From positions 1-64,000 of the IMG/VR virus record IMGVR_UViG_3300027733_000030: a DNA stretch of 64,000 nucleotides, one strand, 5' to 3'. The notes under the pieces are model-generated. The model was given only the letters and a program-made list of their open reading frames with translations, had not been told where the DNA came from and searched no databases. How positions within the stretch are numbered: the stretch's first letter is position 1; the number at the start of each line of letters is the position of its first letter. Of the stretch, positions 1-9,115 are shown one piece after another. Position numbers and translations under genes: made by a program. The stretch is from a virus.

Positions 1-47
1 AGAGCTCATCGTTTTAGGAGCATCTATAATTTTTTTAATAAATAATT

Positions 48-674
48 TCATATTATAATTCCATTCTTTCTTCTATATTCATCTTTTAGCCTAATTATTT
101 CTTGCTTGTGTTGCATTCCCACCGTAAAGAACCAGTGTTCTGGTTTTGTGAAATGAAAAAATATCATTTCTACTTCATTCTTAGCTGGATCTGGAAATTT
201 ATTACGCCAATGATATTGGTCTTCCCCATAATACACCGCAGCTTGATTGGGTTCAAGGATCAATTCTTTTCCTTCAACATATATAGGCCATTGGGTCTTA
301 TAGGACATACACATATCAATGGTAAATGTGCAGGCATTGTCGTCTATGTGGTGCGGTAGATTCGCCCTAAATCCCTTATAGGATACCCATAAAGTATAGC
401 TAGATTGGATATCTTCTCCAAAAATATTGCGAGCCTTTGGCAATAAAGTTTTTGCGGCGTCTTCCAGGATAGGATAACCCATATCTTTATCTAGAGTATT
501 TACATGATGCCTACCTAAAATTGGTTCATATGATAAAATATTATTATCTTTAATATCTGATAATGAATTTTTTAAATAAGAAAAATATTCTGGGCTAAAA
601 ACTTCATCCATAATAAAAGCTTCTGGACGTAGATTTAAAGTTCTTCCAGTTTTGTTATCAAAATATGTTTCCAT
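48..674 (-). CDS. 2OG-Fe(II) oxygenase-like protein
   Basis: HxD motif (LPHHIDDNAC) and distal His (DQYHWR) in a DSBH-like pattern; neighbours are oxygenases. Confidence 0.65.
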   Translation of the reverse strand: METYFDNKTGRTLNLRPEAFIMDEVFSPEYFSYLKNSLSDIKDNNILSYEPILGRHHVNTLDKDMGYPILEDAAKTLLPKARNIFGEDIQSSYTLWVSYKGFRANLPHHIDDNACTFTIDMCMSYKTQWPIYVEGKELILEPNQAAVYYGEDQYHWRNKFPDPAKNEVEMIFFHFTKPEHWFFTVGMQHKQEIIRLKDEYRRKNGIII

Positions 675-681
675 AATATTT

Positions 682-1377
682 TTATTTTTCTTGTGGCATT
701 GGTGTAGAGGAAATAATTATTTCTTTATTTTCGTCCTGCATTGTAGTATTGATTATAAATGTACTGATTATCCATTTGTCATCAGAAATTGGAACACAAC
801 CTTGATGTGGGTGAGTCCAGTGGGCTGGGAATAAAGATATAGATCCAGCTTTAGCTGGAACCATTACACTGTGTTCACGAAAATATGTTTCTCCACCTAT
901 TTCTACATCATTTAGATAAATAACTGCACCTAGGACGCGATCACGAGCACCGTCATGGCCCATTCCACCATCTATATGCTCTCGATAAAATCCAATACCT
1001 CTTTTATATTCTTGAACTCTAAATCCAGTATCTCGTATATTATCCCATTCCCATAGGGACTTAAATTGTTCTCGATAATATTCTATACATTGAAAAAGAT
1101 TTTGCACAATAGCTTGTTCGTATATACTAAGGGGATTAAGAGGAACATTGTTCGCTAGTAAATTATCACAAGACAAACCAGTGTCCATGCTATTTTTTAC
1201 AGACGGATTAATGCCACCTAGAGTAGGACCAGGAGAAAATAATTGAGAGTAATACTTCTTAAATTGACTTATGGAATCAGAGCATATTGATTTATCAATA
1301 ATATTTTCTGCCACCATTATTGCGCCACTTTTTCCAGCAGGCCAATAAAAATTAGTATTACTCATCAAATTCTCCAA
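682..1377 (-). CDS. prolyl-4-hydroxylase-like 2OG-Fe(II) oxygenase
   Basis: FYREHID (HxD), VIYLNDVEIGGETYF, HPHQG, KWIISTF. Confidence 0.85.
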   Translation of the reverse strand: MENLMSNTNFYWPAGKSGAIMVAENIIDKSICSDSISQFKKYYSQLFSPGPTLGGINPSVKNSMDTGLSCDNLLANNVPLNPLSIYEQAIVQNLFQCIEYYREQFKSLWEWDNIRDTGFRVQEYKRGIGFYREHIDGGMGHDGARDRVLGAVIYLNDVEIGGETYFREHSVMVPAKAGSISLFPAHWTHPHQGCVPISDDKWIISTFIINTTMQDENKEIIISSTPMPQEK

Positions 1378-1380
1378 ATT

Positions 1381-1617
1381 TTAAAGTGTTAAAAAAGTTT
1401 CATATACATCTAAAACATCACGAAGATGACGTTCCATACTATTCTTCCATGTATCTGAATTAGATAATGGAGTCCATAAAAATTTTCCATCAACTAATTC
1501 TAGTGTCTCTGGATTTATCCCCGCAGTTATTGCGGCAGTATAAAGTTCTAGTTCTAAATTTTTTCTAGCAGATTGTTTGATTAATCTTTTTTGATTTTCT
1601 GATAATATGAGTTCCAT
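1381..1617 (-). CDS. small helical protein, paralog of 5575..5823 and 4565..4834
   Basis: 78 aa; LELELYTAAITAGINPETLE aligns with LKEQLWMTLIDAGLTPENLD. Confidence 0.7.
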   Translation of the reverse strand: MELILSENQKRLIKQSARKNLELELYTAAITAGINPETLELVDGKFLWTPLSNSDTWKNSMERHLRDVLDVYETFLTL

Positions 1618-1629
1618 TATATCTCCCTG

Positions 1630-2442
1630 TTATTTTGATCTAAAAATTTTTTGAAAGAATGATTTATTTTCAGTTTCTATAGAATTATCTACTTCACGCT
1701 GCATTTTTTTATATTTACTCTTTTGATTACGTGGCATGAACGGCCCACCAAATCCTCTATGATTCAACATATGATAAGTTGATTCATCGCCCCAAAGTAT
1801 TTCTGTCGATTTACTTCTTTCAAAAGGAATAACGTGCCAGATAGGTCTACCTATTTCTAACTCAAAAGGTTGATCAGTTAATATATTCATGACCATATTT
1901 GCATGATGATAGTAATCAGTATGGACTATGGCTGGCAACATTGTATAATTTGGATTTGGATCCCAAAGTGGAGGAAGAAAAAGACATGACCATCCTGGGG
2001 CTGTTTTAATTAACCAGGGATTTATAACTTTAATATAGTTAGCTTTTTCTATTTTTCTCACTTTTGTAACAGGACACTCTCCTGTCTGCCCATAGTTAAA
2101 GCCCTCTATGCCAAAGTCGCCCCTATTATGTGCTAGATCAAATTGAGTTTCCCAGCGAGTACGATCCAATGATGGCCTAAACATTAACTTAGCCCACAAA
2201 GGTATTGTAAATCCTACTGAAAGATAATCTGATGTACCAGAGCAGCGCTTTAAACTTCCCTCCTCACCACTCAAGGCTTTCCACCAATCCGGCCAATTGC
2301 CAAGATTTTCATAAGGAATGCATGAGTCATCCATGAGAAGTGCTGACTCGGGGGTTAACAGTACTTGACCTTTTTTTAATTTTGGAATATCATTAAAAGT
2401 TTTTGCACTAACTATTTGCAACTTCTGCGAGCGCTTCTGCAT
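1630..2442 (-). CDS. conserved phage hypothetical protein of oxygenase/halogenase clusters
   Basis: 270-aa ORF with FTIPLW, INPWLIKTAPGWSCLFLPP, LPAIVHTDYY motifs that I recall from proteins beside phage 2OG oxygenases (unverified); start uncertain. Confidence 0.55.
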   Translation of the reverse strand: MQKRSQKLQIVSAKTFNDIPKLKKGQVLLTPESALLMDDSCIPYENLGNWPDWWKALSGEEGSLKRCSGTSDYLSVGFTIPLWAKLMFRPSLDRTRWETQFDLAHNRGDFGIEGFNYGQTGECPVTKVRKIEKANYIKVINPWLIKTAPGWSCLFLPPLWDPNPNYTMLPAIVHTDYYHHANMVMNILTDQPFELEIGRPIWHVIPFERSKSTEILWGDESTYHMLNHRGFGGPFMPRNQKSKYKKMQREVDNSIETENKSFFQKIFRSK

Positions 2443-3883
2443 GATCTACCAATCTTTGTGTAACTAATTGTTTAGTAAAATTCGTTGTATATTCTAACAC
2501 ATCTTTGCGTGAATTGTATGCGTCAAGTTGAATTGAAGCCATTTGCGGATTAAGAACACCTTGCCCTTGAGCAACATGCCATAAGTGCGCTGCTCCAAAA
2601 AGTTCATAATTAGTAGATGGAATATCGGAAATTTCAGGACCACGAACATTCCATAATTGAAGCAGATGTTGCAAAAGTTCTGGCCGATCTGCTTTTTGCT
2701 GGGCTTTCCACATTTCTGTATCATTTCTATCTGAAACATAATGAAGGGAAATCATACAGAGAATATTATTCATCATCGAGTCCATAATTCGATGATACTC
2801 TTTAATTCCATATGTACGATTTTTCTCAAACGTTGGAAGGTAAGAACATATTAATCGAGCTTGTTGAATAGAAGTAGAAATAGATGTAGCCTCAAGTGGC
2901 TCAACAAAAGCTGCGGCTAAACCCACAGCAATGCAGTTATTCTTCCACGTTTCCTTGAAGTACCCTGCCTTAAAGTTAATTACTTTTGCCGGAACAACTT
3001 CGAAACCATGAACTTGAGAAGCCTCCGCTATAGCTTGATCTACAGTACAAAAATCAGAAGAGAATACATATCCATTACCCCGTCTTTTTTGTGTAGGTAT
3101 TTCCCACATCCAACCATTCTTAAGAGCACGGGCTCTAGTATATGGCCTTATTTGTCCAGAAGGATCTGATTCAGTTGGGAATGCAATCGCGGTGTCACAA
3201 GGAAGATATTTTCTATAATCTACAAAAGTTTGATCAGCTATTTTACTAAGAATTTTTCTATTAAATCCTGTGGCGTCTACAAAAAAGTCACCTGAAATTT
3301 CTTTATTTGATTCAGATAAGATAATTGACTCTATAAACCCATCTTGGTCAAGATTGACATCGATAACTTCATCGTCAATAAATACTATGCCTTTATTTTT
3401 TGAGAATTTAACTAAGTACTCATTTAATTTAAAGGTATCAAAATGATATTGATTAGTACCAAAATGAGTTTTTTCACCGTGGTCAATTATTTTATTTTCT
3501 ACCAATCCACGCCAAGAATAAGTATTAGTAAGTAGTCTATTGTTTTCTAAAGCACTAGAGTAACCAGCCCAAAACGTCCCTGCGGTTGGACCTATATCTC
3601 CTACGCTATGAAAATAGTCTGGAGTATGATTTGTCCAATTTTCATATCTAATTCCATATTTATGCGTAATATCAACTTCTTTAATCATGGTATGAACGTC
3701 TATTCCTACCAGCTCCTGGAACATTCTCCAATGTTCAGTAGAGCCCTCACCAACACCTATGATACCCTGTTTACTAGAAGAAACTATTATTACATTATAG
3801 TCTTTGAAAAAAGCTTTAATAATTAAAGCGGTTACCAATCCAGCTGTGCCAGATCCAACTATGACAATTTTTTTTTGATTCAT
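2408..3883 (-). CDS. flavin-dependent halogenase, tryptophan halogenase (PrnA-like) family
   Basis: GSGTAG FAD motif, GVGEG, THKYGI (catalytic Lys position), GWMWEIP (WxWxIP), FVEPLEATSI. Confidence 0.92.
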   Translation of the reverse strand: MNQKKIVIVGSGTAGLVTALIIKAFFKDYNVIIVSSSKQGIIGVGEGSTEHWRMFQELVGIDVHTMIKEVDITHKYGIRYENWTNHTPDYFHSVGDIGPTAGTFWAGYSSALENNRLLTNTYSWRGLVENKIIDHGEKTHFGTNQYHFDTFKLNEYLVKFSKNKGIVFIDDEVIDVNLDQDGFIESIILSESNKEISGDFFVDATGFNRKILSKIADQTFVDYRKYLPCDTAIAFPTESDPSGQIRPYTRARALKNGWMWEIPTQKRRGNGYVFSSDFCTVDQAIAEASQVHGFEVVPAKVINFKAGYFKETWKNNCIAVGLAAAFVEPLEATSISTSIQQARLICSYLPTFEKNRTYGIKEYHRIMDSMMNNILCMISLHYVSDRNDTEMWKAQQKADRPELLQHLLQLWNVRGPEISDIPSTNYELFGAAHLWHVAQGQGVLNPQMASIQLDAYNSRKDVLEYTTNFTKQLVTQRLVDHAEALAEVANS

Positions 3884-4578
3884 AATTTAACAACGTAGAT
3901 TATAGAAGTACCGACAGGAATATGAAAAACGTATTTATCACTATCATTACATAGTCTTTCAAGATATTCATAGAAAGGATGCATATCTTTTGTGGAGTAT
4001 ACTGAACCAAAATCGCTGAACGAAGATACTATCATGCATCCGCCTGGAGATATATGGTCCCAAATATTATCAATAAGCTGTGTGTCATGACTAAATAATT
4101 CAAAGTCAATGACCGCTAAATCATAATCATCGTCAAAGTTTTTTGCTTCAATGTCTTGAAAGGAAATAACTTTCGAATCATCTAACTGCTCACCTAAGTA
4201 ATTCTCTAAGTAATAAGTATTAATTATATTAATGAAATGAGAATTAGGAACAAGATTCTTTAGAGTTGAACCCATTGCAAAACTGATCATTCCAGAAAAT
4301 ACTTTATTTGGCTTTGACAGGTGTATTGCTAATTCAATGAACGATCTACCAATAATTTCTATATCAAATCCAGGACTATCTGAGTTTGTTAAAAGGCCAA
4401 AATAATTTAATTGCAGAGACATACCAAGAGCAGCTCTGCTTCTATCTGCTCCAGTAGACTGTTCTTCTAATAAGAAAGAATTATAGTTATCACACATACT
4501 CTGTTTATCTATTTGTGTAGATAAATTATTGGATAATATATTTGCTATTTTCAATACATCATAATTAGACATTTTCAA
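3880..4578 (-). CDS. class I SAM-dependent methyltransferase-like protein (divergent)
   Basis: C-terminal YDLAVID...IWDHISPGGCMIV pattern; glycine-rich motif I not clear. Confidence 0.45.
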   Translation of the reverse strand: MKMSNYDVLKIANILSNNLSTQIDKQSMCDNYNSFLLEEQSTGADRSRAALGMSLQLNYFGLLTNSDSPGFDIEIIGRSFIELAIHLSKPNKVFSGMISFAMGSTLKNLVPNSHFINIINTYYLENYLGEQLDDSKVISFQDIEAKNFDDDYDLAVIDFELFSHDTQLIDNIWDHISPGGCMIVSSFSDFGSVYSTKDMHPFYEYLERLCNDSDKYVFHIPVGTSIIYVVKL

Positions 4579-4834
4579 TTCTCCATTTTAAACTTTTATA
4601 CATATACCAAAAGCGACGTATTGACAATTGATTCAATCTTAATTTGGCGTATCGACTTCTATCAATCGGAGATAATTCATCACATTCGGAGGATCCAAAA
4701 GTATTGGAACATGAGTTCATTAAATCATTTAAAGTTAAATTATCTATGTCTTCTATAGACATTCCTATAGTTTCACACAAAGTGCCTAATTGTTGAACGA
4801 CGTACTCATAATCTTCCGTTAATCTATAGCCCAT
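4565..4834 (-). CDS. small acidic protein, distant paralog of 5575..5823
   Basis: 89 aa, overlaps both neighbours; VVQQLGTLCETIGMSIEDID aligns with the shared motif. Confidence 0.65.
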   Translation of the reverse strand: MGYRLTEDYEYVVQQLGTLCETIGMSIEDIDNLTLNDLMNSCSNTFGSSECDELSPIDRSRYAKLRLNQLSIRRFWYMYKSLKWRIENV

Positions 4835-4988
4835 CCATATCTCCTATGTTTTCATTTCCAAAAATAATTGGACTGTCTAACATTGCGCACCATAAAATAT
4901 TTTCATCTTTTATCATTCTTGAATTCTCAGTGTCAAAAATTATATCTTGTAGATTTTCTACATTTGGATATTCATTTTCTGGATTCAT
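4824..4988 (-). CDS. 54-aa acidic peptide (not in ORF track)
   Basis: MNPENEYPNVENLQDIIFDTENSRMIKDENILWCAMLDSPIIFGNENIGDMDGL; ATGA overlap with the upstream oxygenase stop; fills the gap exactly. Confidence 0.6.
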   Translation of the reverse strand: MNPENEYPNVENLQDIIFDTENSRMIKDENILWCAMLDSPIIFGNENIGDMDGL

Positions 4989-5575
4989 CTAAACCACGTC
5001 ACTAAAGAATATTTAATTGAATTATCATTAGAACCAACGGGTTCTGCTATATGTATATATGGGAAATTAGAAGGGAACATTATAACTGTTCCGGCCTTGG
5101 GCTTAATCGATACATTAAATCTTGGGAAAGTTAAATTTCCACCCGAGTAACCATCATTTAAAAAGGCAACTAAACTTAACACTCTATTGTTTGTATTGAA
5201 ATGATCATGGTGAGCTGTATACTCTGCACCACCGCCATATTTTAATACTCTATATCCTTCATCAGCTTCAAGATCTAATTCAAAATTATTTCTATAATCC
5301 CAAACAATTGGATCTATCTTAGCCCAAAGATCATTCCACTCTTTAGCTAGAGGCTTAACTCTTTCAATTTGAATATCTCCTGCCCCTAAAGGGGTCAGTT
5401 CACATCCTAGCGAAGTGCGTTTATCAGATACTTCACCGCTTCCCACAGTCGAGCGTTGCCAATTAAGATAACCCCATTGTTGACTGCATTCTTCTTCTAA
5501 TAATTTTAAAAAAATAGAAGCGTTAAATGCATTATCGTATTGAGCAATACAGGTACCATGTTCAGTAAATTTCAT
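4985..5575 (-). CDS. prolyl-4-hydroxylase-like 2OG-Fe(II) oxygenase
   Basis: YTAHHD, SLVAFLNDGYSGGNLTF, FPSNFPYIH, KYSLVTWF. Confidence 0.88.
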   Translation of the reverse strand: MKFTEHGTCIAQYDNAFNASIFLKLLEEECSQQWGYLNWQRSTVGSGEVSDKRTSLGCELTPLGAGDIQIERVKPLAKEWNDLWAKIDPIVWDYRNNFELDLEADEGYRVLKYGGGAEYTAHHDHFNTNNRVLSLVAFLNDGYSGGNLTFPRFNVSIKPKAGTVIMFPSNFPYIHIAEPVGSNDNSIKYSLVTWFR

Positions 5576-5823
5576 TATGCAGGCAGCTCCGACTTAATTT
5601 GCTCTGTGTTATTAATCTGATCTATCATTAGAATAACTTGAGCTCTAAGATGCGCGTTCTGATCAGAAATTTCTGTATCTGGATCAAAATTATCCATGTC
5701 AAGATTTTCCGGTGTGAGCCCTGCATCAATAAGCGTCATCCACAATTGTTCTTTGAGGGATGTAATTCTTACTGAAAGGATTTGATTTTTACGTTCATTA
5801 GTTATTGAATTAAAAAATGTCAT
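5575..5823 (-). CDS. small helical protein, first gene of the tailoring operon
   Basis: 82 aa; AAGGAG RBS upstream; paralog of 1381..1617. Confidence 0.75.
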   Translation of the reverse strand: MTFFNSITNERKNQILSVRITSLKEQLWMTLIDAGLTPENLDMDNFDPDTEISDQNAHLRAQVILMIDQINNTEQIKSELPA

Positions 5824-5848
5824 TTTTTCTCCTTAATTGTGATTGTAT

Positions 5849-5857
5849 ATTATACCA
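5849..5857 (-). promoter_or_regulatory. extended -10 sigma70-type promoter (TGGTATAAT)
   Basis: TGnTATAAT in the intergenic gap, about 25 nt upstream of the 5823 start. Confidence 0.6.
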
Positions 5858-5865
5858 TATTTTTT

Positions 5866-7728
5866 TTAAATATCTATTAACTTAGAATAATTAGAATGGC
5901 CAATTTGATTTGTCGCATTAAAGTTGCCCGGATTTCGAGTAACAAGAATTATACCACCAGTTGAACCAGTAACTCCTGTGCCACCTGGATTAGCTGCTCC
6001 AGCTGCTCCAGCTGCTCCACCAGTGCCTCCAGTATAGTTGGCATTTGTGGCATTGTGGTTTGGCGCTGCTGCTCTATTGCTAGTAACGGCGCCTGTTGAA
6101 ACGTTTAAAGTAGCAGCTGTATGCGGGTGTGATCCAGCATTATAGCCAGCGGGATGCGGATTCCCGCTATGAGGAGCCGTACCCGTACTGCCAGCTGGGT
6201 GAGGAGTACTGCCTGCCGGATGAGGATGATGTCCAGCATGATGATGATTTCCTCCCGTATGTCCTAGTGTATTTGCTGTATGGGGCACGCCTGCAGGTCC
6301 AGCATTTGTAGCTGGGTGTGGACCTGTTGGACTATGGTGATGGCCGTGACCAGCATTAGTGTAAACATGACCATTATGATGATCGTTTCTTCCTGAATTA
6401 GGGAATGCTCCCGCAGCGTGAGAATACGGATGATTGCCGGCGTTGTGATTGCCCGCATTATGAGTGGCAGCAGTGTGTCCAGAGCCGGGGTTGTGGTTTC
6501 CATTTTTTGAGTTGATAACATTACCATTATGGTTAGTATTCCCGCCAGTTCCAGTTCCACCATGTGTCCAGTGCTGCGCGGGCACATGTGCTGCATTTGA
6601 TGTTGAGTTATGGCCTGATACACCAGGGCCATTCACTGGGTGATGATGATGTCCAGTGCCTGCATTATGGGCAGATCCTCCATTATGGGCAATTATATAC
6701 GTAATATATGGGCCGGTACGGTGAGTTACTGCATTATGACCATGGGATCCATGAGCGTGGTTTTCTGAAGTTGGATGATTTCCAGCAGCTATGTGTAGCA
6801 CTGCGTTATGAGGATTAGCGTGCGGTCCCCCATCTGGATGGGGGTGCGATCCTGCAGGGTGCGGATGGGCTCCAGCGTTATGACTAGCTGCGTATGGGGT
6901 TCCTGTAGTAGCCGTAACTACGACGCCGCCCGTAGTATGGGGATAATTTCCTAAAGTGTGGTATGCAGTTATGCTAGGAGCAGAGTTTCCTGCGGTACCA
7001 GAGTTACCCTGTGTAGCTGGGTTGCCTGCGGATCCAGCAGCTCCATAACTCACTAAAGTTCCAGAGCCTGCAATTGTTTTAGCGAAAATAATAACCAATC
7101 CACCACCAAGACCACCAGCGCCACCAGTTCCAGCTGTTGCCGGATTACCAGCGGTACTAGCATTACCTGCACCACCAGCTTGACCTGTCAAGGCTCCAGG
7201 AAAGTTTCCGGCGTTTCCAGCGAATGGACCCGTTGCAGCTGAAGTAATGCTTCCAGCACTTCCTTGGGCCCCTAATGAACCTGCACCAATTTTGGTAATA
7301 GTTCCCGCGCCAGTAATAAACCATCCAGATACTGAATCGTCTAAGTCATAAAGATCCGTTACGGATATAGTATCTGTACTCGTACCCCAAGCTTTAGATG
7401 GATTGAGGGAAGTTTGTCTTCCGGCAATTGTTCCACTTCCATCTGTTACAGAGTGAGTAACTGCGGCGGGCATACCAACTGTTCCGTTATTTGTGAAAGT
7501 TCCATTGACAAAAATGCGGAATCCATTTGTAAATAATGTAACACCACTATTAACCGTAAGATTAGTACAGTATATATCTTTTACTAATTTATAAACGTTT
7601 GAAGTTGGAGCTAATGAAATTACTGTAGCTGTGCCGTCAAATGTAGCTGCGCTATCAGTACCTTCTCCAAAAATAGCGTCTCCGCCTTCTCTCTGAACAA
7701 TAGGTCTGTTTGTTCTTTTAATCGCCAT
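5866..7728 (-). CDS. Gly-rich virion/fibre protein with a long His-rich insertion
   Basis: 620 aa; about 54 His counted in roughly 285 aa; HNAG and HPHPAG repeats; N-terminal domain paralogous to 7730..8548. Confidence 0.75.
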   Translation of the reverse strand: MAIKRTNRPIVQREGGDAIFGEGTDSAATFDGTATVISLAPTSNVYKLVKDIYCTNLTVNSGVTLFTNGFRIFVNGTFTNNGTVGMPAAVTHSVTDGSGTIAGRQTSLNPSKAWGTSTDTISVTDLYDLDDSVSGWFITGAGTITKIGAGSLGAQGSAGSITSAATGPFAGNAGNFPGALTGQAGGAGNASTAGNPATAGTGGAGGLGGGLVIIFAKTIAGSGTLVSYGAAGSAGNPATQGNSGTAGNSAPSITAYHTLGNYPHTTGGVVVTATTGTPYAASHNAGAHPHPAGSHPHPDGGPHANPHNAVLHIAAGNHPTSENHAHGSHGHNAVTHRTGPYITYIIAHNGGSAHNAGTGHHHHPVNGPGVSGHNSTSNAAHVPAQHWTHGGTGTGGNTNHNGNVINSKNGNHNPGSGHTAATHNAGNHNAGNHPYSHAAGAFPNSGRNDHHNGHVYTNAGHGHHHSPTGPHPATNAGPAGVPHTANTLGHTGGNHHHAGHHPHPAGSTPHPAGSTGTAPHSGNPHPAGYNAGSHPHTAATLNVSTGAVTSNRAAAPNHNATNANYTGGTGGAAGAAGAANPGGTGVTGSTGGIILVTRNPGNFNATNQIGHSNYSKLIDI

Positions 7729-7729
7729 T

Positions 7730-8548
7730 TTATACTACCTGTGAATAAATAACAGTACCCGCACTACAACCAGTTCCACCAGTAACATCGGTTGATACGC
7801 CAGAAGTCAGAACTCCAGCAGATGAAATAATAATTATTACTCCACCTCCACCGCCGCCAGAACCAGAAGTCCCAGGCGCTTTAATTGTAGCTGCTGCTGT
7901 AGTGCTAGAAAGACCAATGTATCGCGCCGCAAGAATCACTACTCCTCCGCCTAGACCTACTGTGCCCCCTGCGCCACCTCTCAATGGCGTAGGGGTTAAA
8001 GATGTACCAGTAATAGAGTAACCCTTTATTGCCTGAAAGGGTTGATAGTAATAATTAGTTCCTCCCGTAGCTGCAGTGGGTGCTACTGCTGAGTAAGACG
8101 CACTGGAACCACCAAGACTGTGGGCTACTGGCGATGTTGAAGCGTTATTTATAGCTCCCCCCTGCTGAATAGAACCAGTAGTGCCAAATCCTGTTGTATG
8201 ACCTATTACAGATAGATTTCCAAGCGTTAAAACATTTTGAACAAAAATTCTGTACCCTGCGGGATTTAGTCTAATGTTATCATCAATTATTAAATTAAGT
8301 GTAAATATATCCTGCGTCATAGTAAATACGCTGGCACTATATGTTAGCCCTAGTGAAGTTGTAGCTGATGAATATGTTCCCGCAGCTCCATTTGTTGTAT
8401 TCAACGTTGCCGTCCCGTGCGCAGCAGAACCATAAACTGGATCTGGAGCATCAAGAAAGCCAGTCAAGTTAGAGTTCGCTTTTGACGTTGTTGATGGTCC
8501 AGAGGCGACGCTGAGACCACCTCCATTCGTAAAAATGAACTTTCCCAT
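7730..8548 (-). CDS. Gly-rich virion/fibre protein
   Basis: 272 aa; QDIFTLNLIIDDNIRLNPAGYRIFV matches KDIYCTNLTVNSGVTLFTNGFRIFV of the neighbour; GGGVVILAA motif. Confidence 0.7.
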   Translation of the reverse strand: MGKFIFTNGGGLSVASGPSTTSKANSNLTGFLDAPDPVYGSAAHGTATLNTTNGAAGTYSSATTSLGLTYSASVFTMTQDIFTLNLIIDDNIRLNPAGYRIFVQNVLTLGNLSVIGHTTGFGTTGSIQQGGAINNASTSPVAHSLGGSSASYSAVAPTAATGGTNYYYQPFQAIKGYSITGTSLTPTPLRGGAGGTVGLGGGVVILAARYIGLSSTTAAATIKAPGTSGSGGGGGGVIIIISSAGVLTSGVSTDVTGGTGCSAGTVIYSQVV

Positions 8549-8549
8549 T

Positions 8550-8927
8550 TTAGTATCCTACGTATCCATTAATCATATAGTTAACTGACGTTGAACTTGC
8601 AAGTCCACGTATGTTGTCTGAATACGTATAGTTTGGCGTAGCCGCACTACCGTTATTATTATACATTACAACGGAAGTCGATAAAGTAACTGTTTCGTTA
8701 GCTGCAAGTGATAATGAGTTAACAAAAATATGCGAACTTGCTACAGTTACTCCATATGGTTTCAAATACAAGGTTACTGTTTGAGTAGAGGCAGATGTAT
8801 TGCACAGTATTATTTCTTTAATTACAACGGTGGTTACTTGTCCCGCGTTATATGGGGCAGTATATAGGTCTGCGGCTGACGTGCTAAATGCCGATGGACC
8901 AACAAGTCTAGTTGGTGTCATAGCCAT
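8550..8927 (-). CDS. small beta-rich virion structural protein
   Basis: 125 aa, LYTAP...VIKEIILCNTS pattern typical of small phage tail-associated proteins; tight operon. Confidence 0.6.
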   Translation of the reverse strand: MAMTPTRLVGPSAFSTSAADLYTAPYNAGQVTTVVIKEIILCNTSASTQTVTLYLKPYGVTVASSHIFVNSLSLAANETVTLSTSVVMYNNNGSAATPNYTYSDNIRGLASSTSVNYMINGYVGY

Positions 8928-9115
8928 TAGATGACCTCCATTATACTTCGTACTTCAGCAGTTCCCAAAGGAACTGATGCTTGTTTCAATGCTGATGTGG
9001 CAGAAGTTTGATTAGCGGTATCCACCGCATCTCGTGCAGTTTCTTGGGGTGCAGTGTAGTTAGCTGTTGTTTCCGTATTGGCGGAACCATCATATGTATA
9101 TAACACTCTTGTCAT
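8927..9115 (-). CDS. hypothetical protein
   Basis: 62 aa, AGGAG RBS, TAATG overlap with the downstream gene. Confidence 0.6.
   Translation of the reverse strand: MTRVLYTYDGSANTETTANYTAPQETARDAVDTANQTSATSALKQASVPLGTAEVRSIMEVI

Follow-up and report, generated by a model that had tools for sequence, protein, structure and literature searches.

Small helical-hairpin proteins beside oxygenase and methyltransferase-like genes in a conserved cassette of uncultured aquatic phages

What purpose might be served by the placement of a small acidic protein before each of several enzyme genes in the fibre region of a phage? The question is raised by IMG/VR virus record IMGVR_UViG_3300027733_000030, of which positions 1 to 64,000 were analysed (64,000 nucleotides, hereafter the window). 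Three short open reading frames (ORFs) near one end of this stretch, here called P3, P2 and P1, had been described in an initial annotation as paralogs that each precede an enzyme gene, and as possible adaptor subunits, leader-like peptides or fibre chaperones. Their positions, residues and neighbours proved correct, all on the minus strand, and the neighbouring enzymes were confirmed as two PF13640 oxygenases (4985-5575 and 682-1377) and a weakly methyltransferase-like protein (3880-4578). P1 and P3 belong to an undescribed family of acidic two-helix hairpins of 68-88 amino acids, which among the records searched is confined to one cassette of large uncultured aquatic phages. P2 is probably a distant relative, and all three may act as docking or adaptor subunits of the enzymes beside them.

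The three ORFs are real genes, because a Shine-Dalgarno site stands before each ATG (AAGGAG in P3, TAGGAG in P2 and AGGGAG in P1) and because nonsynonymous divergence from their relatives (pN 0.18-0.47) falls far below saturated synonymous divergence (pS 0.62-0.83), as expected under purifying selection. Translated in six frames, the window contains the 17-residue pattern by which they had been grouped at three places only, one in each ORF, and 300 shuffles contain it nowhere; the test is circular in that the pattern was derived from the same three sequences. Compared directly by BLASTP, P1 and P3 share 8/21 identities (E 0.002), and P2 matches neither. Profile comparison by hhalign aligns the P1 type with the P3 type over 64 columns (86.5%, E 4.6e-6), and aligns each of them with 41 other members at 99.1% and 99.4% (E 5e-19 and 3e-21, respectively). 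A hidden Markov model (HMM) built from those 41 members only recovers the P1 and P3 types at E about 1e-16, and the full family HMM scores P1 at E 2e-22 and P3 at E 9e-36. On the strength of these profile and intermediate-member comparisons, which draw on 58 unique members, P1 and P3 are true paralogs. P2 stands further off, as it is not matched by the family HMM even at E<=10. A profile of its own family (19 sequences) aligns with the P1/P3 family at 70.6% (score 28.2) over 26 columns that lie exactly at the motif first recognized. By comparison, reversed alignments score 12-13, none of 60 column shuffles exceeds 12.5, and four small families of the cassette that are unrelated to it stay at or below 14. 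The proposal of three paralogs thus stands for P1 and P3, and is reduced for P2 to a probable distant kinship through one common module, comprising helix 1 and the tip that follows it.

P1 and P3 share the features by which family members are recognized, namely an N-terminal M-x-[FL], a first helix ending in G-[ILV]-[DN]-P-[ED]-x-[FLY]-[DE], an amphipathic second helix, and the cassette context. In an AlphaFold2 model of P3 based on a 36-sequence alignment (predicted local distance difference test, pLDDT, 89), helices 9-33 and 54-79 are joined by a loop, and the conserved motif at the end of helix 1 forms the tip of the hairpin. The N-terminus and the tip are the best conserved parts of the family, the N-terminal half more so than the C-terminal half, and the tip proline is the sole invariant residue in the 36-sequence alignment, being present in 57/58 unique members. 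Towards the C-terminus there is no variable core; a conserved amphipathic helix packs there against helix 1. Mean net charge across the family is -5.6, cysteine occurs in 6/36 members, and GG or GA within the last 40 residues in 1/36. The model of P2 (pLDDT 87) likewise contains helices only (5-23, 27-32, 35-46 and 56-88).

Family members were gathered in stages, from nine close relatives of P3 to 36 and then 58 members. A search with the oxygenase downstream of P3 (Oxy196) returned 33 related IMG/VR loci at 41-78% identity; a combined P1 and P3 profile, run against 1.8 billion representatives, added 18 further small proteins that span both types and intermediates between them; and a further 43 loci came from three scans that started from sub-alignments of the small proteins. 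With these, the unique members number 58. Two long matches of the representative search (P0019 and P0023), considered as possible fusions, are repetitive helical proteins instead. All contexts described here come from IMG/VR contigs, and many of the loci were found through the oxygenase itself. With that proviso, a family member lies upstream of the Oxy196 homolog in every related locus with upstream DNA, and five phage records of 132-194 kb carry one or two copies each, all within the cassette.

In the window every gene from 14.5 kb down to position 48 lies on the minus strand. Transcription would run from a 1522-amino-acid fibre gene through small genes of 62 and 125 amino acids, a Gly-rich gene of 272 amino acids, and His620, to P3 and Oxy196, and onward through s54, P2, MT232, the halogenase, p270, P1, Oxy231 and p208. 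The features of the cassette, in that order, are:

7730..8927, minus strand: gly272 and p125, a conserved pair of structural genes with which the cassette begins upstream; their order (p125, gly272, His-rich gene) is kept in related loci.
5866..7728, minus strand: His620, a His-rich fibre-region protein of 620 amino acids, encoded immediately before P3, which the cassette enzymes might take as a substrate.
5575..5823, minus strand: P3, an acidic protein of 82 amino acids modelled by AlphaFold2 as a helical hairpin; first copy of the family of 36-58 members, with AAGGAG upstream.
4985..5575, minus strand: Oxy196, a prolyl-4-hydroxylase-like 2OG-Fe(II) oxygenase of 196 amino acids (PF13640, Pfam E 1.6e-14), downstream of P3.
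4824..4988, minus strand: s54, a very acidic protein of 54 amino acids between Oxy196 and P2, overlapping both neighbours.
4565..4834, minus strand: P2, a helical protein of 89 amino acids from a separate family, with TAGGAG upstream and an overlap with the MT232 gene.
3880..4578, minus strand: MT232, a weakly class-I-methyltransferase-like protein of 232 amino acids (Pfam Methyltransf_24, E 0.031), partner of P2.
2408..3883, minus strand: a flavin-dependent, tryptophan-type halogenase of 491 amino acids (Pfam Trp_halogenase, E 1e-103), a core gene of the cassette.
1630..2442, minus strand: p270, a divergent DUF6065-like protein of 270 amino acids (phrog_7084, E 2.6e-21; DUF6065, E 0.035), directly upstream of every P1-type copy.
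1381..1617, minus strand: P1, a paralog of P3 of 78 amino acids and second copy of the family, under purifying selection, with AGGGAG upstream.
682..1377, minus strand: Oxy231, a paralogous 2OG-Fe(II) oxygenase (PF13640, Pfam E 9.8e-10), downstream of P1.
48..674, minus strand: p208, a 2OG-oxygenase-like protein of 208 amino acids after Oxy231 (phrog_2954, E 7.8e-12), with HHIDD in its sequence.

The cassette is kept among relatives from 78% down to about 40% oxygenase identity, in the order p125, Gly-rich gene, His-rich gene, small protein, Oxy196, halogenase and p270, with an optional gene (X) before Oxy196 and an optional block of acidic small protein, P2 and MT232 after it; the halogenase is present in nearly all. 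Beyond p270 there are four endings: a second small protein followed either by Oxy231 or by a protein of 219-238 amino acids (protein U), a gene of 149-185 amino acids followed by Oxy231, or a 'long U' of 362-372 amino acids. In other loci, two or three small genes stand in a row behind a clear DUF6065 gene (234 amino acids, E 4.7e-45); these arrays are followed by P2 and MT232, or lie near a cytochrome P450 and a WS/DGAT-like acyltransferase. Across the 58 unique family genes the next gene is an oxygenase in 24, gene X and then an oxygenase in 10, another family member in 10 and U in seven; the previous gene is a His-rich gene in 21 (and in four more with X between), p270 in 15, a DUF6065 gene in six and a family member in 10. 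The claim that each small gene stands upstream of an enzyme is therefore true of the window, and of P2 wherever it occurs, and is too strict for the relatives of P1 and P3, in which the oxygenase follows directly in 24/58 and after one intervening gene in 10 more. Gene X itself (132-148 amino acids, beginning M-x-R-[FV]-[VI]-x-x-P; for example L030 3582-4004 and L069 4552-4998, plus strand) has no Pfam match and constitutes a further cassette-specific family, found before or after the first hairpin gene and absent from the window.

Pairing of the small genes with what follows them is nonetheless close in several respects. The stop codon of P3 overlaps the start of Oxy196 (TAATG). P2-type genes are followed by MT232 in 15/15 cases and precede it in 21/21 unique homologs, mostly with an overlap of 8 nt, such that P2 is an obligate, translationally overlapped partner of the MT232 gene. 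All unique P1-type copies (10/10) lie between p270 and an Oxy231-type oxygenase. More generally, clades of the family track the downstream gene, the P3 type with Oxy196-type oxygenases, the P1 type with the Oxy231 type, and types of 68 and of 85-88 amino acids with protein U, for which an oxygenase identity was ruled out by profile comparison. A mirror-tree analysis gives its highest partial correlation with the oxygenase (0.32, vs 0.19 for the His-rich protein), which is weak evidence.

The module also occurs fused. When the family HMM was searched against 839 long ORFs, the best match was the C-terminus of a 362-amino-acid U-type protein (L065, E 0.002), followed more weakly by the U proteins of 371-372 amino acids from L014 and L029. 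By hhalign the long-U C-termini align with the P1/P3 family at 87.5% over 30 columns (E 3.6e-6; reversed and shuffled controls score at most 13.8), and less well with the P2 family (25%, 41 columns). Short U ends about where the extra domain of long U begins. Loci with a short U carry a separate small gene immediately before it; in L014 and L029, long U directly follows p270 with no separate second small gene. The fused module is thus found in three locus types, with the separate second gene missing in two. Split and fused arrangements of this kind are usually a sign of physical partners.

Taken together, the overlap of stop and start codons, the match between clade and neighbour, the pairing of P2 with MT232, and the fused module lead us to favour, with a degree of belief slightly below even, the view that the small proteins serve the neighbouring enzymes as docking or adaptor subunits, with no catalytic activity of their own. 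Of the three roles suggested initially, that of a dedicated adaptor or recognition subunit is likewise the best supported, albeit indirectly. By this mechanism each small protein would bind the product of the adjoining gene (Oxy196 for P3, Oxy231 for P1, MT232 for P2, and protein U for other subtypes), engaging its partner through the variable faces of its helices. Its conserved tip and N-terminus would meet a target shared by the whole set, for which the His-rich, low-complexity virion protein that the enzymes would modify is a plausible candidate.

Several observations weigh against the adaptor reading. An oxygenase comes directly next in only 24 of the 58 genes, X intervenes in 10, and another 10 precede a further family member in arrays of two or three. 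In one locus (L060) the first copy stays beside the His-rich gene, and Oxy196 lies elsewhere in the cassette. Gene order is no less regular upstream than downstream, nearly all genes or arrays following a His-rich gene or p270/DUF6065. The whole cassette is tightly packed, so that overlaps of stop and start codons are not specific to particular pairs, and the fused module lies after U, whereas the free gene lies before it. The mirror-tree signal is small and confounded, as all cassette genes co-vary (r 0.84-0.91), and the relationship of P2 to the family rests on 26 columns.

A bolder version of the adaptor reading, which we consider doubtful, would make the family part of a modular docking system. 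A helix-plus-tip module of about 30 residues, free-standing in P1 and P3, elaborated in P2 and fused in long U, would tether at least four cassette proteins to one virion target; these would be the two prolyl-hydroxylase-like oxygenases, the methyltransferase-like protein and protein U, and the target would be the His-rich or another low-complexity virion protein. At the edge of an oxygenase-rich locus that carries three tandem hairpin genes (L062 80-619, plus strand), a 179-amino-acid protein consists largely of F-P-P-[YF] repeats; it is proline-rich and of low complexity, and offers prolyl-hydroxylase-like enzymes a candidate substrate of a second kind.

Of the competing explanations, the one that survives best, unlikely as we hold it to be, is that the small proteins are fibre assembly chaperones, resembling T4 gp57A in function and not in ancestry. 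They would then form no part of the enzymes, and would hold low-complexity virion proteins, such as that with the long uncharged His-rich loop, in solution or aid their oligomerization. The classic position for tail-fibre assembly genes, right after the fibre-region gene, is occupied by 25 of the 58 unique genes (21 directly after the His-rich gene and four with X between), and in L060 the small gene has remained with the His-rich gene although the oxygenase moved. Like the P1/P3 family, gp57A (80 amino acids, annotated as a tail fibre chaperone) is small, all-helical, acidic and phage-encoded. It is required for fibrous virion proteins, and some 40% of the family genes adjoin a fibre-region gene. 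In T4, however, the gp57A gene has neither fibre genes nor enzyme genes for neighbours, whereas hairpin genes are also met next to DUF6065 genes, oxygenases and protein U and in arrays, and the module exists as a fused domain. Homology is not detected either, in a comparison with a single gp57A sequence (NC_000866) that may miss very remote kinship: hhalign with the family gives 1.2% and a score of 13, equal to reversed controls. No member matches a gp38-type family in Pfam or PHROGs. P1-type copies, U-linked copies and tandem arrays adjoin no fibre gene, following DUF6065-type genes instead; P2 and the fused module sit with enzymes or U; and array loci have no His-rich gene within 5 kb. The suggestion of an analogy with gp38 or gp57 retains some plausibility as a similar role for the copies that follow His-rich genes.

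Still less probable, in our estimation, is that the small proteins are themselves the substrates, either as RiPP-like precursors or as folded proteins hydroxylated at the tip proline by the adjoining prolyl-hydroxylase-like enzyme, with P2 likewise modified by MT232, to yield modified signalling or structural pieces. The near-invariance of this proline, in a family whose commonest neighbour is a PF13640 enzyme, speaks for such a scheme, tandem arrays of two or three paralogs recall those of precursor genes, and the N-terminal half is better conserved than the C-terminal half. Yet D-P-E is also an ordinary helix N-cap, such that the proline may be purely structural, and it is kept equally where U or P2, and not an oxygenase, comes next. 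The specific suggestion of Nif11-type leaders is not supported. Nif11 leaders do resemble the family in their helical N-terminal region with an A-x-x-G-[hydrophobic]-x-x-x-E-x-L-type motif, and in being small genes beside modifying enzymes, sometimes in tandem. They differ in motif spacing, and the hairpin family has neither a GG cleavage site (GG or GA in 1/36) nor a variable core, the whole protein being predicted to fold as a hairpin (pLDDT 89) in which the C-terminus is a conserved amphipathic helix; cysteine is rare, and hmmscan against Pfam at E<=1 gave no match to Nif11 (PF07862) for P1, P2, P3 or any of the 36 family members (0/36), nor was any other leader family matched. Fusion of the module to a 300-amino-acid protein is a further point against a substrate role.

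We give slightly less credence again to functions unrelated to the neighbours, for instance as acidic proteins for anti-defence or host takeover, or as regulators, merely carried along in a variable region. Small acidic phage proteins are often inhibitors or mimics, and no functional domain is detectable in these; against this, the position in the cassette is kept down to about 20% identity, with no copies elsewhere in the five phage records, the subtypes track the type of the adjoining gene, and a fused form exists. That the likeness of the three ORFs is mere chance among unrelated small reading frames is very improbable, for although direct BLASTP similarity is weak over 21 residues (P1 with P3) or absent (P2), and the pattern was composed post hoc, the profile and transitive evidence is overwhelming and refutes chance for P1 and P3, and the module likeness of P2 exceeds its reversed, shuffled and unrelated-family controls by >14 score units.

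If the hairpins are indeed adaptors, parallels may be sought among small non-catalytic partners such as RiPP recognition elements (RRE; PqqD-like) and MbtH-like proteins, which occur free beside a tailoring enzyme or fused to it, and which serve several enzyme classes per cluster. The hairpin family is similarly small, free or fused, and would serve several enzyme classes in one cluster. An RRE is nevertheless a winged helix-turn-helix with a three-stranded beta-sheet, as opposed to the helices only of the P3 and P2 models, and no Pfam match was found; moreover, the target of an RRE is a leader peptide, whereas that presumed for the hairpin family is a virion protein. Among structures in the PDB, the family profile matched only consensus-designed ankyrins, through a stretch of about 20 residues ('ELYxLLIxxGIDPETFD', E 6e-6 summed over repeats) that resembles helix 2 and the following loop of the ankyrin consensus (LLxxGADPNxxD). 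As the family holds a single copy of this stretch and not an array of 33-residue repeats, has no Pfam Ank match, and is not modelled as an ankyrin fold, the likeness is most likely a convergent helix-cap motif. WXG100/ESAT-6-like proteins, also hairpins of about 80-100 amino acids with a conserved tip motif and often in tandem pairs, appear among the weak Foldseek matches (E 5.4-6.5), but the family tip is G-[ILV]-[DN]-P and not W-x-G, there is no Pfam match or secretion context, and the structural similarity is generic (VIA Z below 8).

Wider searches were consistent with an undescribed family. Pfam and PHROGs gave at most scattered sub-threshold matches to the three ORFs and 36 members. Foldseek (PDB and BFVD) and a wide VIA-align search returned generic hairpins for both models (best PDB Foldseek E 2; best VIA Z 7.9), the best BFVD match being an uncharacterized phage protein of 84 amino acids that is probably a family member, and the ESM Atlas gave no feature match and generic structure matches. 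Against 50,697 GenBank phage records, megablast with positions 1-9000 found no match, and tblastn with P3, P1 and two divergent members found nothing meaningful. The family HMM likewise found nothing in the cultured cyanophage S-SCSM1, despite the oxygenase-rich fibre region there, and no mention of DUF6065 or of the P1/P3 hairpin family was found in the literature.

The remaining genes of the cassette are also informative. Oxy231 and Oxy196 are 33% identical over their core (E 4e-11; family profiles 100%), and the TTG start of Oxy231 at 1377 is probably wrong, as GGAG followed by ATG at 1365 would give 227 amino acids, a length like that of its homologs. Compared with the PDB, the MT232 family profile weakly matched methyltransferases (E 0.037-0.06), and that of DUF6065/p270 weakly matched dUTPase (E 0.035). 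The family of s54 comprises nine unique conserved copies, and acidic proteins of 56-89 amino acids fill the same slot in other loci; as hhalign comparisons with the P1/P3 and P2 families remain at noise level, it is a third small conserved family, unrelated to either. Downstream of Oxy231, p208 recurs in eight unique loci. It matches PHROGs named 'ferrochelatase' (phrog_2954 and phrog_3531), yet carries HHIDD amid 2OG oxygenases; cyanophage RefSeq records also give that name to Oxy196 homologs, and the label is probably an error handed on from record to record. In the closest related phage contig (L001 9940-11193, plus strand) the halogenase ORF encodes 417 amino acids vs 491, an internal segment near the C-terminus being apparently missing, and it is possibly a decaying copy. 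Elsewhere, a WS/DGAT-like acyltransferase (Pfam E 3.5e-11) and a cytochrome P450 (E 1e-30) lie right behind a pair of hairpin genes (L058 5548-8092, plus strand), bringing natural-product-type enzymes into a phage fibre-region cassette, and two glutathione-peroxidase/redoxin-like genes flank an array of oxygenase, DUF6065 and hairpin genes in another locus (L066 3370-3969 and 8349-8966, plus strand), the first with a Pfam GSHPx match (E 1.9e-11).

A prnA-like halogenase gene and multiple 2OG-oxygenase genes have counted as conserved but unexplained in aquatic myoviruses since 2005-2010 (PMC1079782, PMC2984593), and in neither report is a substrate, or a part in infection, attributed to the phage halogenase. 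The cassette described here links the halogenase and oxygenases to a His-rich virion protein and to hairpin proteins specific to the cassette. The analysis also defines two protein families and a fused form that go unannotated in current phage annotation pipelines. Should the hairpins prove to be docking subunits, P3, P1 and P2 would serve as cheap handles for recovering enzyme and target together. Were the modular form of docking also true, it would amount to a phage-encoded assembly line for the post-translational modification of a virion fibre, with a docking logic like that of the RiPP leader and RRE system applied to a structural protein, and would point to the long-sought substrate of the phage 'tryptophan' halogenases.

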